Source: a virus
Lineage: Duplodnaviria > Caudoviricetes
DNA length: 64,000 bases
IMG/VR virus record: IMGVR_UViG_2585427716_000002
Span: 32,001-96,000 of that record
Strand: one strand, 5' to 3'
The first letter of the stretch is position 1, and every line of letters starts with the position of its first letter. The notes beneath the pieces are model-generated. The model was not told where the DNA came from, made no database searches, and saw only the letters and a list, made by a program, of their open reading frames with translations. Shown here in pieces: positions 1 through 48,151 of this stretch. The translations under genes were made by a program, and so were the position numbers.

Positions 1-702
1 TGAACGTTGTTTAGAAACAGTATTGATTGCGTCATCAACTGTTTTAAGTTGAGCATTGAATCCTACAGTAGCAGTGTCAGCCGCATTATCTTTGAATTTT
101 GTTACGTCGATGTCAGATACTGCTTGTCCAGTAAGAAGTGTCGTACCGTCTGTATCTAAAGCACCAATTGCTGTAGCTGCCATGCTTTCAATGTTGACAG
201 AAAGCTGTTGACTGCTGTTAGCTCCGATTTGGAATGTTAATGATTTACCGCCAGCTTGCGAGAAATCGCCATTAAGAAGTTTTTTACCGTTAAATTCAGT
301 ACGGTCGGAGATACCGTTAGCGTTTGCTCCGCCACCGATTTCTTCAACTAGAGATTTGATCTCATCTTGGATCGCTCCAAGATCTGTACCATCTTGTGTA
401 CCTGTGTTTCCAGCTTGAACAACTAGTTCACGAACACGTTGAAGAATAGAGTGAGTTTCAGTTAATGCACCCTCAGCTGTTTGGATAAGTGAGATTCCGT
501 CTTGAGAGTTTTTAGAAGCCATATCAAGACCTCTGATTTGTCCTCTCATTTTTTCAGAGATCGCAAGACCAGCCGCGTCATCTCCCGCACGGTTGATACG
601 AAGACCAGAAGAAAGTTTCTCCATGTTCTTTTGTGCCGCACCGTTGTTTGCGCCTAAACGGTTTAATGTGTTAAGTGCTGCGATATTGTGGTTAATTCTC
701 AT
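1..702 (-). CDS. hag: Flagellin (3' end runs off the window edge; not in the ORF track)
   Basis: ATG at 702 after SD GGAGG. Translates MRINHNIAALNTLNRLGANNGAAQKNMEKLSSGLRINRAGDDAAGLAISEKMRGQIRGL...TEFNGKKLL...FQIGAN...AINTVSKQRS, the canonical flagellin N-terminus with a short variable region. 234 codons are visible. Confidence 0.98.
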   Translation of the reverse strand, partial: MRINHNIAALNTLNRLGANNGAAQKNMEKLSSGLRINRAGDDAAGLAISEKMRGQIRGLDMASKNSQDGISLIQTAEGALTETHSILQRVRELVVQAGNTGTQDGTDLGAIQDEIKSLVEEIGGGANANGISDRTEFNGKKLLNGDFSQAGGKSLTFQIGANSSQQLSVNIESMAATAIGALDTDGTTLLTGQAVSDIDVTKFKDNAADTATVGFNAQLKTVDDAINTVSKQRS

Positions 703-922
703 TTTTTGTTACCTCCGTGTAATGTTTTTTGGAAACCTCTTCGATATCCTTATCTGGCGAGATTTCCGTCCGATGAATTCGAAACTCTTTTGGAGCGTCT
801 ATAGCAATTCTCACTTGATTTTTTCTATCTTTGATCTTGAGGACCGTAATCTTAATCTCATTCCCTATTGAATCTGTTATAATGAAAGATTCTTCGTATT
901 GTCTAGATATTACAAGTGCCAT
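692..922 (-). CDS. csrA: Divergent CsrA/RsmA-family RNA-binding translational regulator (76 aa)
   Basis: MALVISRQYEES...IKITVL...QVRIAIDAPKEFRIHRTEI matches the CsrA pattern (LVLSR, VxLGIDAP, IHRxE). ATG at 922 follows SD AAGGAGGAG (931-940). The gene overlaps the hag start by 11 bp. Confidence 0.9.
   Translation of the reverse strand: MALVISRQYEESFIITDSIGNEIKITVLKIKDRKNQVRIAIDAPKEFRIHRTEISPDKDIEEVSKKHYTEVTKNEN
709..722 (-). promoter_or_regulatory. CsrA-type site over the hag SD
   Basis: TTAC-ACGGAG-GTAA hairpin with an ANGGA loop, lying inside the csrA coding sequence. Confidence 0.6.
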
Positions 923-930
923 GCTATTTT

Positions 931-964
931 TCTCCTCCTTGAGCTTGTCATTCATCCCTGACAA
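931..964 (-). promoter_or_regulatory. Two CsrA-type GGA sites in the operon leader
   Basis: Hairpin TTGTCA-GGGATGAA-TGACAA (945-964) and CTC-AAGGAG-GAG covering the SD. Confidence 0.6.
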
Positions 965-969
965 TTAAT

Positions 970-996
970 ATATCGACGATGGGTATTAAATGTTTA
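970..996 (-). promoter_or_regulatory. SigD (sigma28) promoter for csrA-hag
   Basis: TAAA-N15-GTCGATAT versus consensus TAAA-N15/16-GCCGATAT, with an A/T-tract UP-like element upstream (about 1000-1020). Confidence 0.85.
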
Positions 997-1027
997 TAGA
1001 TTTTCTTTAAAAAATTTTTCAACAAAT

Positions 1028-1051
1028 AAAAACCGCCCGTAAAGGCGGTTT
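1028..1051 (-). terminator. Intrinsic terminator after the endolysin
   Basis: AAACCGCC stem / GGCGGTTT followed by a T-run on the minus strand. Confidence 0.8.
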
Positions 1052-1062
1052 AATGTCCCACT

Positions 1063-2268
1063 TTAAAACATCACATTCCATGTATTGTATCCAACAATAC
1101 CGTCTACTCCCAAGAAAGGGAATTTAGATTGGTAGTTCTTTACAGCCTTTTCTGTCGCTGCACCGAAGTCACCGTCTACACTAATCTTCAATGCTCTTTG
1201 AATCGCTTCAACGTCTTTGCCGTGTGCCCCTCTTTTTACAGGAGAGCCTGGGTATGGTCTGACAGGCTTATGTTTAAGGTACTCAGCTAGCCGAGCGTCT
1301 ACCTTTTTCATTGATGTTTTCTTTGCAGTATTGGAAGATGGTGTACTTGCACTCTTATACCCAACAAGGACTTTTTGACCAACCTGCAATTTAAGTGGAT
1401 TAATTCCTGGGTTTAACTTTTCAATGTTTGCTACTGTGGTTTTGTAGTCGACTGCTAAGTGTGAAAGTGTTGGACTATTCTTAGAGATTGTCCCATAGAT
1501 TGGACTCTTACCACTATCTGTGGTTTTACTTTCCTCCTGGATAAGTAATGTGCTTCCAATTTGAAGAGCAAGAACATCGATCTCAGGATTTAATGCTTTT
1601 AGTTTTGCCACTGTAGTTCCATACTCATTTGCAATTTTATACAGAGTATCTCCTGAAACCACCTTATGTGTCTTCCCACTTTTTACAGACGCTGTTTGTG
1701 GTTTTGCTGATTTACCGGAACACTCTTTGTATTCGGCGGCCACATCAGTTATCAGCTGGTTGTAAGTTTTACCGATATGTTTCAGACCGTTAGATGGATC
1801 AATTTTACGCTTAGGGTCTAAAGTTTCGTGACCCACAATATCACGTTTAGGGTCTAAGCCGAACTTATAGCAAAGATAAGCTAAAATCCAAACATATCGA
1901 GCATAAGATTTTGCTCCATCGATGTTCCCTCCCCAACATAACTCAACTCCGATCGCTGCGTCATTTGCGTCCGCACCAAACATTCTATTATCTGTTGTTA
2001 CATTGTAGATAACATGGTATGCTCGTTCAGGCGTTCCAAGTACCGCTGGAATGCACTCTCTGATACACTCGTCATCGACAAAAATTTGGGCACTTGCTGC
2101 AATGGTTGGTGAGTTTCGATAATAGTTAATATTACCTTTCGCTGTAGATCCTGGGTTTCCAGTGTCGTGGGCTACAAGGAATCTTACGTTTATCTTTCCT
2201 CCAGGACGTCTTTTAGTGCCTGTAGGCAATAAATCTGAAATAATATCGTATTTCATCTTAAAACTCAT
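1063..2268 (-). CDS. Endolysin: N-acetylmuramoyl-L-alanine amidase (Amidase_2) + 2 LysM + PG_binding_1
   Basis: Amidase motifs VAHDTGN, IGVELC, IVGH, KIDP; LysM HKVVSGDTLYKIA...LNP; C-terminal VEAIQRAL...DGDFGAATEKAVKNYQ...DGIVGYNTW. Confidence 0.92.
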   Translation of the reverse strand: MSFKMKYDIISDLLPTGTKRRPGGKINVRFLVAHDTGNPGSTAKGNINYYRNSPTIAASAQIFVDDECIRECIPAVLGTPERAYHVIYNVTTDNRMFGADANDAAIGVELCWGGNIDGAKSYARYVWILAYLCYKFGLDPKRDIVGHETLDPKRKIDPSNGLKHIGKTYNQLITDVAAEYKECSGKSAKPQTASVKSGKTHKVVSGDTLYKIANEYGTTVAKLKALNPEIDVLALQIGSTLLIQEESKTTDSGKSPIYGTISKNSPTLSHLAVDYKTTVANIEKLNPGINPLKLQVGQKVLVGYKSASTPSSNTAKKTSMKKVDARLAEYLKHKPVRPYPGSPVKRGAHGKDVEAIQRALKISVDGDFGAATEKAVKNYQSKFPFLGVDGIVGYNTWNVMF

Positions 2269-3069: not shown

Positions 3070-3927
3070 TTGAATTACGCTAATAGATTTGAAACACATA
3101 TGAGAGTAGAAAAAGACTTATCTGATAACACAATCTCCAACTATATGAGGGACCTTGGCAAATTTACCGACTACATAGATGTCGATCTGATAGATGTCAC
3201 CCCGGACCATGTACGAACCTTTATCTCACACCTCTCCAAAAATGGTTTAAAGCGCAACTCCATTAACCGGGCACTTTACTCACTTAAATCCTTTTATAAG
3301 TACCTCAAGGAGGTAGAAGGAGTCATACAAGCTACCCCCACTGATGGGATAAAGGTAGGTTCTCGTGAAAAATCGTTGCCTAAATTTCTCTCAAAAGAGG
3401 ATGTGTTACGTCTTTTGGAAACTGCCAGCAGAGAAGGAGTAAGAAGCCGCCTTTACGTAGAGCTTTTGTATGGATTGGGTGGCCGTGTCGCTGAGGTTGC
3501 TGCCTTACGTGTCGAAGACATAGATTTTGAAGGTAATTATATCCGTCTGAGGGGTAAAGGAAATAAAGAAAGGCATAACCCAATACACGAAAGCTGTATT
3601 CAACTTATACGGCAATATATCAAAGATCTAGGGATAACCTCAGGATTTTTATTCCCGCATAGGTTCGATAAATCAAGACATGTAACAAGGGAAGCGATAT
3701 TCCTCAATATAAAAAATATTGCTGATAAAGCCGGTATAGATAGAAACCTCGTCAGCCCTCACGTCTTCCGGCACAGTTTTGCCACACACTTGTTGGATAA
3801 TGGATGTGACATGGCCATTGTCCAAGAGTTTTTAGGGCATGAGGACATCTCAACAACTAAGATTTATGCCAAGGTTACAAGAGGAAACAAATCAAATAAT
3901 TATAAAAAATTCCACCCTCTTGCCTGA
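3070..3927 (+). CDS. XerC/XerD-like tyrosine recombinase
   Basis: SAM-like N-terminus (LSDNTISNYMRDL); catalytic motifs GGRVAE, GKGNKER, HVFRH, LGH, TTKIY; 285 aa, with no N-terminal arm-binding domain. Confidence 0.93.
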   Translation: MNYANRFETHMRVEKDLSDNTISNYMRDLGKFTDYIDVDLIDVTPDHVRTFISHLSKNGLKRNSINRALYSLKSFYKYLKEVEGVIQATPTDGIKVGSREKSLPKFLSKEDVLRLLETASREGVRSRLYVELLYGLGGRVAEVAALRVEDIDFEGNYIRLRGKGNKERHNPIHESCIQLIRQYIKDLGITSGFLFPHRFDKSRHVTREAIFLNIKNIADKAGIDRNLVSPHVFRHSFATHLLDNGCDMAIVQEFLGHEDISTTKIYAKVTRGNKSNNYKKFHPLA

Positions 3928-46714: not shown

Positions 46715-48151
46715 TCACTCTGATTGTGATTTTGTCTGCAACTTAGCTAATTCGTTTCGAGTCAGTTCTTCTAAGTTACCGCCTTTTGTTCGGTAAATCT
46801 CCATAGCGTTCTTGGCCGCTAATTCTCGCATTCTTGTTTTAGAGAGAATCTCGGTCTGATCGTTATTTTCTTGAAGTTCGACAGAGGTTACTCTAGCTTC
46901 TTCAACAGAACCTGGGAATTCCGATTGAAAAGCTGTAAGTTCTTCTTTTAGCTCATCGACACTTAAAGTTTCAGCGTATTTTTGGTAACGGTCTTTATTA
47001 AACGCATTCCCTCGTGCCTTAACTCCAGCCTCAACTACAGAATCAATCAAATCTTTAGTGAATTTATCTGCTAATTCAGATTTAGCCGTTAGTTCGACAT
47101 TCGTCTGCTCAGTTGCGCTCAATTTTTCTTCTAAAGCCTCAACTTTATCTTCAAATTTAGTGAGTTTGCCCTCAGCCTCTGACAGCTTCACCGATAAATC
47201 CTCTTTTTCACTTACAACTTTGTTGTACTCAGCCAGTGAGACAACATCTTTTGACTCGTCCGCCACCGATAATGATTGGTTATTAGTAGGCATTTCTTCA
47301 CTTCCTTTCAGGTAGTTAATATCCTTACGTTCGGAAGTCGTAGTAAACAACTCCATATTTCCTTTTGACATCCTACACAATATCTGTGAATGTAAAGGGA
47401 CTGTCTTAATGTCATCTACATTATAGAAAGTAGTTTCATCTTCTTTAACAGACCCTTGTAATCTTTCTGAAAATGTTTGACCCTCCGCAGCAAATTGGCC
47501 GTGTGTGATTATCGCTCTATTGACTGCACCTGCATAAACTAGGGAATTCTCTAAACCTTCACCTTTGTTGGCTACAATGTCACAGCGGCGTTGCTCAACT
47601 TCCTCCCCCACCTGAACATCGTAAGTTCGTCCAGGCAAATGAGAACATTTTTCGTAATCACGTATGTCATGGTTACAAATTGAACATTTAGGCTCTGTCA
47701 TAGCAAAACCTATCGAGGTATCGAAGGTATGGCCCACATCTATGTGGTTAACTATATCTTGAGTAGTCATTCCATTGATCTCTGTTCGCAAAGGTACTTT
47801 ATTTCCTTCTCCGTCTTTCACATGAGTCACTATGTAATGATCGACATACATAGTCTCTACTGGTTCCCCATTAACATGATCAACCGTCACCTCAGCGTCA
47901 AAAGTACGTCCGAAAGGTAACCTACCGTTATCATGAGAAGCCAGCAAACCCACACCGGCCTTATAATCCTTCTTTAGGGAGTTGAGCATATTACCATTCA
48001 TGATAATACTATACTCTCCGAACCATCCGAAGCGCTGTACAGGTAACGTGTCAGCGGACAGACTGCGGAAAACATATACTTGGTCTTCATCTAAAGCAGA
48101 ATGAGAAAGTTTATTAATTTTCCTCAACTGCTCTTTTGTTGGCATTGGCAT
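46715..48151 (-). CDS. Prohead protease-scaffold fusion
   Basis: SH..GR, TSIGF, CSIC...C.H.PG, ENSLVYAGA, then a coiled-coil scaffold. Confidence 0.8.
   Translation of the reverse strand: MPMPTKEQLRKINKLSHSALDEDQVYVFRSLSADTLPVQRFGWFGEYSIIMNGNMLNSLKKDYKAGVGLLASHDNGRLPFGRTFDAEVTVDHVNGEPVETMYVDHYIVTHVKDGEGNKVPLRTEINGMTTQDIVNHIDVGHTFDTSIGFAMTEPKCSICNHDIRDYEKCSHLPGRTYDVQVGEEVEQRRCDIVANKGEGLENSLVYAGAVNRAIITHGQFAAEGQTFSERLQGSVKEDETTFYNVDDIKTVPLHSQILCRMSKGNMELFTTTSERKDINYLKGSEEMPTNNQSLSVADESKDVVSLAEYNKVVSEKEDLSVKLSEAEGKLTKFEDKVEALEEKLSATEQTNVELTAKSELADKFTKDLIDSVVEAGVKARGNAFNKDRYQKYAETLSVDELKEELTAFQSEFPGSVEEARVTSVELQENNDQTEILSKTRMRELAAKNAMEIYRTKGGNLEELTRNELAKLQTKSQSE

Follow-up and report, generated by a model that had tools for sequence, protein, structure and literature searches.

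The DNA analysed here, a stretch of 64,000 nucleotides (the window) from the IMG/VR virus record IMGVR_UViG_2585427716_000002, carries within its first kilobase a cassette of two overlapping genes behind a promoter of the sigma-D type: csrA*, which encodes a CsrA-family RNA-binding protein, and hag*, which encodes a phage flagellin. The window corresponds to C14:79725-143724 of a 4.0-Mb Bacillus genome, and positions within the cassette are given on window numbering. The cassette lies inside a prophage, recurs in other phages and in plasmids, is under purifying selection and contains no fliW, and its CsrA does not have the residues with which CsrA proteins contact FliW. From this anatomy we infer, with a probability of about 0.5, that the cassette serves flagellin replacement, i.e., that the filament of the lysogen shifts towards the phage flagellin.

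Anatomy of the cassette and its two products

The cassette and its immediate surroundings comprise the following features, listed with the evidence for each:

1..702, minus strand: 5' part of hag*, the phage flagellin gene, codons 1-234 of 305 (open reading frame and Pfam)
692..922, minus strand: csrA*, a CsrA-family RNA-binding protein of 76 aa (Pfam, PHROG 9500)
709..720, minus strand: Shine-Dalgarno region of hag*, ACACGGAGGTAA, with GGA, within the csrA* coding region (comparison of five cassettes)
731..767, minus strand: hairpin 2, with an AGGA apical loop, within the last csrA* codons (RNA fold compared with shuffles)
932..940, minus strand: Shine-Dalgarno sequence of csrA*, AAGGAGGAG, with GGA motifs (sequence and cassette alignment)
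945..964, minus strand: hairpin 1, a 6-bp stem that may form at the 5' end of the transcript, with the loop GGGAUGAA (minimum-energy fold)
970..996, minus strand: promoter of the sigma-D (sigma-28) type, TAAA-N15-GTCGATAT (pattern match and cassette alignment)
1030..1051, minus strand: intrinsic terminator of the endolysin gene (9-bp stem with 5 GC pairs, T-rich tail)
1063..2268, minus strand: phage endolysin, context outside the cassette (Amidase_2, two LysM, PG_binding_1)

The csrA* product matches the Pfam family CsrA (PF02599) over residues 3-55 with 53.5 bits (cut-off 27; E value 2.3e-14; 52.4 bits in the whole-genome search) and the PHROG 9500 family, 'CsrA-like regulator', with an E value of 6.2e-13. 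It is only distantly related to the CsrA of the host, with 38.9% identity over 54 aa. When CsrA* is aligned by HMMER to E. coli CsrA (1Y00), APKEFRIHRTEI pairs with APKEVSVHREEI, and the APK...HR.EI motif is kept. In the CsrA of both E. coli and B. subtilis, the RNA-binding arginine of strand beta-5 is Arg44 (PMC7829508); this arginine is kept in all eight rows of the CsrA alignment and in six other phage CsrAs, and the beta-1 motif is kept as well.

Binding of FliW is reported to require Val/Ile51 and Asn55 of CsrA: exchange of the latter (N55D/A) abolishes or weakens the interaction, N55D CsrA being FliW-deficient, and deletion of the C-terminal extension abolishes it (PMC7829508, PMC6529632). 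At the corresponding positions, +7 and +11 from the arginine, CsrA* has Lys and Glu and not Ile/Val51 and Asn55. The Ile/Val plus Asn pair occurs in none of eight phage CsrA types, whereas Ile51 and Asn55 are both present in 26/26 chromosomal CsrAs of the family (these residues, like the arginine, were counted by eye from the alignments). The tails of the phage proteins are also short, four types ending before or near +11 and several within approx. 10 residues of the arginine. Scanning of ten cassette loci with the FliW profile gave no match. The csrA* gene evolves under purifying selection, the ratio of nonsynonymous to synonymous substitution rates (dN/dS) being 0.21-0.28 in six of six pairs. 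The subfamily to which its product belongs is small and distinct; a search of 1.84 billion representative proteins with a CsrA* profile returned only two clusters below an E value of 1e-19, the next match being at 3e-13.

The hag* gene is an uninterrupted frame of 305 aa with both flagellin domains (Flagellin_N, 153 bits; Flagellin_C, 117.9 bits). Its ends are close to those of host Hag, with 97% identity over the first 100 residues (dN 0.027, dS 0.252) and 94% over the last 85 (dN 0.045, dS 0.233), and its surface-exposed centre differs from host Hag and is longer by approx. 21 residues. The preliminary description of this DNA had raised the possibility of changed immune recognition; for the conserved N-terminal epitope this is unlikely, given the 97% identity of the first 100 residues. 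Residues 1-72 contain a single difference from host Hag. Since the flagellin N-terminus, residues 1-72, is reported to suffice for FliW binding (PMC6070490) and 71 of these are as in host Hag, Hag* should bind host FliW. A hag* open reading frame with approx. 97% identity was found in RNA contigs of two other organisms (X19 and X21). These contigs match over the hag frame only, and from 5 nt upstream of the ATG they continue as a canonical hag leader, which identifies them as chromosomal hag alleles of those organisms; runs X15 and X4, compared alongside, gave fragments. Thus, the hag* frame is a working allele elsewhere, and its junction with cassette-specific sequence lies at the start codon.

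The full hag* gene (C14:79509-80426) extends 216 nt to the left beyond the edge of the window and is followed at C14:79466-79499 by a perfect bidirectional terminator, as read from the sequence. Its ATG is located at 700-702 and the csrA* stop codon lies 8 nt past this ATG, so the two genes overlap by 11 nt. At the other end, the endolysin terminator insulates the cassette from the lysis operon. This layout agrees with the preliminary description, in which a SigD promoter directly after the endolysin terminator, its position upstream of csrA, and an overlap between the last codons of csrA and the flagellin gene had been pointed out. The site at 970-996 is the sole match of its pattern in the 64-kb window, where 0.03 matches were expected and at least one match arose in 3 of 100 shuffles; the comparison was with the sigma-D consensus. 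A looser sigma-D pattern gave 65 matches genome-wide, proved too permissive, and was dropped. No pair of inverted repeats bracketing the promoter region (923-1062) was found, so the promoter is not recognizable as a Hin-type invertible one. A XerC/XerD-like tyrosine recombinase gene is present at 3070-3927 on the plus strand (Phage_integrase, 145.7 bits), where it stands alone on that strand between the lysis and tail-fibre genes, far from both prophage ends; no feature ties it to the cassette promoter.

Alignment of five cassettes revealed that the -35 TAAA and the -10 G.CGATAT are invariant and that the first bases of the leader, together with GGA, are kept. GGA is found at the place of hairpin 1 in all five cassettes, and a hairpin was predicted there in two of the four leaders that were folded. 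Hairpin 2 consists of a 9-bp outer and a 4-bp inner stem with an AGGA loop, 13 nt before the Shine-Dalgarno region of hag*; its predicted energy is -15.7 kcal/mol (z score -2.62), and one of 200 shuffles was as stable. The equivalents in the other four cassettes have GGA loops on differing stems (z scores -2.63, -3.04, -2.26, and -1.54), and in all five the hairpin falls within the last csrA* codons. The core of the hag* Shine-Dalgarno region, ACACGGAGGTA, is identical in 5/5 cassettes, whether it is coding or non-coding. As far as sequence and fold prediction can tell, hag* is thus preceded by the two elements of a CsrA-controlled hag-type leader, a GGA-loop hairpin and a GGA-containing Shine-Dalgarno sequence. 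The csrA* leader also looks CsrA-regulated, both cistrons being preceded by GGA motifs. Since hairpin 2 encodes the conserved tail of CsrA* (S-P-DKD-I-EE-V-S), it may be the RNA, and not the protein, that accounts for the conservation of this tail.

Prophage context, host flagellin genes and recurrence

On both sides the cassette is surrounded by phage genes. To the left of position 1 are plus-strand genes of early type, including two sigma-factor-like genes and genes for RecA-like, RuvC-like, PcfJ, and MazG proteins; to the right are the lysis genes, the tyrosine recombinase, fibres, tape measure, capsid, portal, terminase, ribonucleotide reductase, and ThyX. The immediate neighbours are the endolysin gene and small open reading frames. 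The portal protein is 70.7% identical to that of Brevibacillus phage Jenst (126 kb) and 66% identical to that of Bacillus phage EZ-2018a. Relatives of the host align to C14 only left of approx. 47739 and right of 171612, and in their genomes these flanks abut, as expected of an empty site. The prophage ends were therefore placed at C14:47740 and 171611, next to a 15-bp direct repeat (47725-47739 and 171612-171626), which yields a Jenst-like prophage of approx. 123.9 kb with the cassette approx. 32 kb inside. By our reading of the sequence, the insertion interrupts a host tRNA gene within the anticodon region; neither half was called by ARAGORN, and an intact tRNA-Val(GAC) gene close within the right prophage end (C14:171522-171593) looks like a replacement for the split gene. 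Neither Jenst nor SecTim467 (portals 70.7% identical) has a flagellin match at an E value of 1e-10. With its host-type promoter, its terminators on both sides, its position within a phage, and no flagellin in these two relatives, the cassette has the attributes of a phage moron.

The host has its own flagellin locus, which is located on C44. The single FliW match of the genome in a profile search (C44:299466-299822) lies there, outside the prophage, beside a canonical csrA; hag follows at C44:298229-299083, and the usual promoter, GGA-loop hairpin, and GGA-containing Shine-Dalgarno sequence stand between csrA and hag. A second, yvzB-like host flagellin gene is located after uvrA at C44:271679-272500. 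Thus, the cassette is not the only hag locus of the host. The preliminary description had regarded the cassette as phage-borne, devoid of fliW, far from the host in its CsrA sequence, and unlikely to be the host locus, and each of these statements holds: the prophage ends are mapped, the only FliW match and a separate fliW-csrA-hag locus are on C44, and the place left of position 1, where host flagellar genes might have been found, is occupied by phage genes. The TnpB/TldR gene for which it had proposed to look is also missing, as the zinc-ribbon domain PF07282 gave no match in the whole genome and did give matches in control genomes.

At the yvzB-like locus (C44:271679-272860), both ends of the cassette have a match, one in a sigma-D -10 box with the leader start and the other in a GGA-loop hairpin with a Shine-Dalgarno sequence (z score -4.21); the sequence upstream of the locus is conserved across 11 of 48 other genomes of the genus. 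A candidate csrA remnant in the middle of this leader was rejected, since 319/500 and 75/500 shuffles reached the observed local score. Either the cassette arose from a yvzB-like locus by gain of csrA, or the yvzB-like locus is a cassette that has lost csrA.

The closest relatives of CsrA* (72-93% identity) form seven database clusters, which are named from B. atrophaeus, B. licheniformis, B. paralicheniformis, B. glycinifermentans, and the B. subtilis group; the first cluster also has members named B. spizizenii and B. halotolerans. CsrA* is encoded by five Bacillus plasmid records of approx. 200-205 kb. The two that were examined, NZ_CP114067.1 and NZ_CP014843.1, are 'non-mobilizable plasmids' of approx. 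205 kb from B. halotolerans and B. licheniformis, and in both hag directly follows csrA and a gene with a DnaA N-terminal domain is adjacent. The genes of NZ_CP114067 (a 'low copy number virion structural protein', a lysozyme-family protein of 2158 aa, PA14 proteins, ThyX, RecA, SSB, primase, and helicases) point to a probable jumbo phage that is maintained as a plasmid. It has no portal of the Jenst type, and the search for known phages similar in DNA to the approx. 205-kb plasmid gave only short recA-like matches.

Other phages carry the pair in other surroundings. A 124-kb IMG/VR contig, syntenic with the window phage around the cassette, encodes a 62-aa CsrA* (55% identical) and a flagellin of 384 aa. 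In EZ-2018a, a flagellin with 78% identity stands behind a very divergent CsrA-like open reading frame (profile E value 1.2e-4), and the neighbourhood differs, a TPR gene and ThyX being adjacent. A flagellin search retrieved six more IMG/VR loci, five with upstream DNA and a sixth that is cut; in four of these five a CsrA frame directly precedes the flagellin (E values 1.5e-15 to 3.7e-10), and in one it does not. On a 52.6-kb IMG/VR contig, the csrA-flagellin pair lies immediately before the genes for the small and large terminase subunits. In every element seen the flagellin is full-length (293-673 aa), and csrA* is always 5' of it on the same strand. It thus appears from these gene maps that the csrA-flagellin unit moves between unrelated phage backbones, at least four of which carry it at differing positions. 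A comparison through the PcfJ-like gene yielded no Jenst match among the best 10 of 137 records. CsrA* was found in 0/48 other species genomes of the genus at an E value of 1e-8, and a pattern scan of species-representative genomes gave only one distant relative, in a Fuerstiella metagenome-assembled genome (46%); the cassette is therefore rare, strain-level accessory DNA.

Two further observations concern variants of this arrangement. On a 172.7-kb IMG/VR contig (approx. 3597-4001), a short CsrA, with 53 aa after Met, precedes a separate sigma-D-like -10 box, a leader with a GGA-loop hairpin, and a flagellin gene; this csrA-promoter-flagellin order is host-like, and fliW is absent within 3.6 kb upstream. 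In run X4, which holds DNA of another organism, a 124-kb contig aligns with the endolysin end and, at a threshold of 88%, leaves out the csrA* stretch, pointing to a related phage whose csrA* in this position is divergent.

Possible action of the cassette and competing explanations

If the cassette serves flagellin replacement, it would act as an insulated lysogenic-conversion unit ('moron') of a large temperate Bacillus phage. In motile cells of the lysogen, host RNA polymerase with sigma-D would transcribe it into one mRNA, csrA* first and then hag*. CsrA*, with its retained RNA-binding core, would bind the GGA hairpin and the Shine-Dalgarno sequence of the host hag leader and hold down translation of the host flagellin, and without the Ile/Asn contact to FliW the host would be unable to switch CsrA* off; CsrA* would also limit its own synthesis at its own leader. 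The ends of Hag* would fit the export and assembly machinery and FliW of the host, and its central exposed part differs from that of host Hag. Hag* would escape repression, continue to be produced, and enter the filament, which would shift towards the phage flagellin, and any surplus Hag* would tie up FliW and thereby free host CsrA, an effect in the same direction. The lysogen might benefit, for example, by protection from flagellum-dependent phages. In B. subtilis, even an undetectable rise of CsrA above equilibrium is reported to inhibit motility (PMC6529632). As motility is stopped by so slight an excess, a FliW-blind prophage CsrA should hold down translation of host hag.

As to how hag* might escape, one possibility is that ribosomes finishing csrA* open hairpin 2 in cis. 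In an extended form, which is offered tentatively and which we rate as rather unlikely, such translational coupling would distinguish self from non-self: csrA* ribosomes would melt hairpin 2 and license hag*, the untranslated host leader would stay locked by a FliW-blind repressor, and the module would be portable between unrelated Firmicutes phages, swapping its flagellin frame with host alleles. One protein, with no sequence-specific guide, would then silence the resident flagellin and exempt that of the phage.

Several points weigh against flagellin replacement. No transcript or protein of the cassette was found, the two RNA runs compared covering only the chromosomal hag of other organisms. 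The FliW blindness proposed for CsrA* is read from two residues and the length of the tail. Hag* translation does not look obviously immune to CsrA, because a GGA-loop hairpin with a GGA-containing Shine-Dalgarno sequence is the very layout of the host hag leader, and as the csrA* start is also flanked by GGA, either CsrA* or host CsrA could shut the whole operon. For hairpin 1, the leader's minimum-energy fold, the z score is -0.71 and 43/200 shuffles were as stable; energy thus does not support it as a significant structure. Flagellin is needed in very large amounts, and if hag* is coupled to csrA* translation the repressor would be overproduced. Finally, the host hag gene is intact, so any replacement would be regulatory only.

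Among the competing explanations, the most probable, though it too is rather unlikely, is that the cassette provides a self-contained extra flagellin. CsrA* would then mainly police its own operon through hairpins 1 and 2, and the result would be mixed filaments or a modest addition, with host hag unsilenced. An added hag copy would break the fixed ratios of FliW, CsrA, and hag mRNA, which would explain why a private repressor is brought along. The GGA hairpin and Shine-Dalgarno pairs on both cistrons and the constant placement of csrA* before the flagellin on the same strand fit this idea, as do the stoichiometry of approx. 1:1:1 and the hypersensitivity that are documented for the host system (PMC6529632). 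However, a repressor that is not relieved by FliW would provide no secretion-coupled feedback and would be a poor homeostat, and cross-repression would be hard to avoid, as GGA hairpins of the same type occur in the host hag leader.

A more doubtful alternative is that the cassette is a brake on motility, with less flagellin as the net outcome. A FliW-blind CsrA would repress both host hag and hag*, and Hag* would chiefly soak up FliW and free host CsrA; the lysogens would carry few flagella, a state that would keep out flagellum-dependent phages or favour sessile life. That B. subtilis loses motility when CsrA is slightly in excess (PMC6529632) and that the FliW-binding N-terminus (PMC6070490) is conserved in Hag* would suit such a brake. 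Nonetheless, a FliW sponge needs the N-terminal part only, yet the flagellin is full-length in all elements seen; moreover, its export and polymerisation ends are under purifying selection, and its central region matches working chromosomal alleles.

It is also improbable that CsrA* is chiefly a global regulator that reprograms host or phage mRNAs and has a secondary link to flagellin, a role that has been proposed for the CsrA/Rsm proteins of other mobile elements. Phages also carry csrA genes without a flagellin (Bacillus phage Dartukuta, one Providencia phage, and 28 Vibrio phage records, all absent from the flagellin-bearing phage records), and there is a PHROG family named 'CsrA-like regulator'. 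However, in every element of this lineage that was examined, csrA* is tied to a flagellin and a flagellar promoter, and its own mRNA and the host flagellin leaders are where the clearest CsrA-type sites lie. The least credible reading, a neutral passenger of host flagellar DNA that was acquired by illegitimate recombination and is functionless for the phage, can draw on the closeness of the hag* frame to chromosomal alleles (approx. 97% to the RNA contigs of other organisms) and on the resemblance of the cassette ends to the yvzB-like locus, but it leaves unexplained a gene order unlike that of the host locus with no fliW, two intact genes under purifying selection, the retention of the unit in at least four unrelated backbones at differing positions, and a CsrA* subfamily as small and distinct as that described above.

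Comparison with known systems

By its parts, the cassette is closest to the Hag-FliW-CsrA switch of B. subtilis (fliW-csrA-[PsigD]-hag), and by its logic to the tldR-fliCP prophages of Enterobacter and to Salmonella fljBA. A CsrA-family repressor, a sigma-D promoter, a Hag-type flagellin, and a GGA hairpin with a GGA-containing Shine-Dalgarno sequence before the flagellin gene are common to the cassette and the B. subtilis switch. In contrast to the switch, the cassette has no fliW, its promoter precedes csrA and serves both genes through one mRNA, the csrA and hag frames overlap, the hairpin lies within csrA, and the whole is located on a phage; its CsrA, which is 39% identical to that of the host, does not have Ile51 and Asn55. 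As B. subtilis Hag-FliW-CsrA is the best-understood system of flagellin homeostasis, the cassette is directly testable in it. It would offer a natural CsrA that is predicted to be FliW-blind, together with a natural example of a coding region that contains a regulatory RNA hairpin.

The phase-2 operon fljBA of Salmonella follows the logic proposed for the cassette: one transcript carries an alternative flagellin gene along with a gene whose product represses the resident flagellin post-transcriptionally. Unlike the phage cassette, fljBA has the flagellin gene first, is driven by a promoter that is inverted by Hin, and is chromosomal. FljA is, to our knowledge, not a CsrA-family protein.

The FR-phi prophages of Enterobacter (tldR-fliCP) likewise combine a temperate phage flagellin behind a sigma-28-type promoter with a repressor that is thought, or has been reported, to silence the host flagellin (PMC10705468, PMC13418256). 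Their repressor is described as an RNA-guided, nuclease-dead TnpB derivative that blocks transcription, whereas that of the cassette is of the CsrA type and would be expected to block translation; furthermore, the host of the cassette is Gram-positive and its genome has no TnpB/TldR domain (PF07282). A second link between csrA and an extra flagellin is provided by the csrA-tldR-fliC loci of Clostridia/Oscillospiraceae, for which binding of CsrA to a hairpin in the flagellin 5' untranslated region has been reported (PMC13418256). These loci are described as chromosomal, and no phage association is reported for them (PMC10705468). They contain TldR and, in many cases, an invertible promoter together with a hin invertase, whereas the cassette has neither TldR nor bracketing repeats. 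Small CsrA-family proteins are also encoded by other mobile elements (CsrA/Rsm of Vibrio and Providencia phages; PHROG 9500); unlike the present case, none of these is among the flagellin-bearing phage records, and their identity to CsrA* is at most 48%.

No description of a phage csrA-flagellin cassette was found in the literature searched, the coverage of which was incomplete. Such cassettes may explain how flagellin alleles move between Bacillus strains, and if filaments are converted, consequences would follow for resistance to flagellum-dependent phages and for the antigens that Bacillus strains of soil and food expose at their surface. To date, the flagellar remodelling reported for phages concerns Enterobacter prophages, which use an RNA-guided repressor (PMC13418256). 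To judge from the cassette, large temperate phages of Bacillus and its relatives would have reached the same end by capture of the ancient CsrA translational switch and removal of its off-button.

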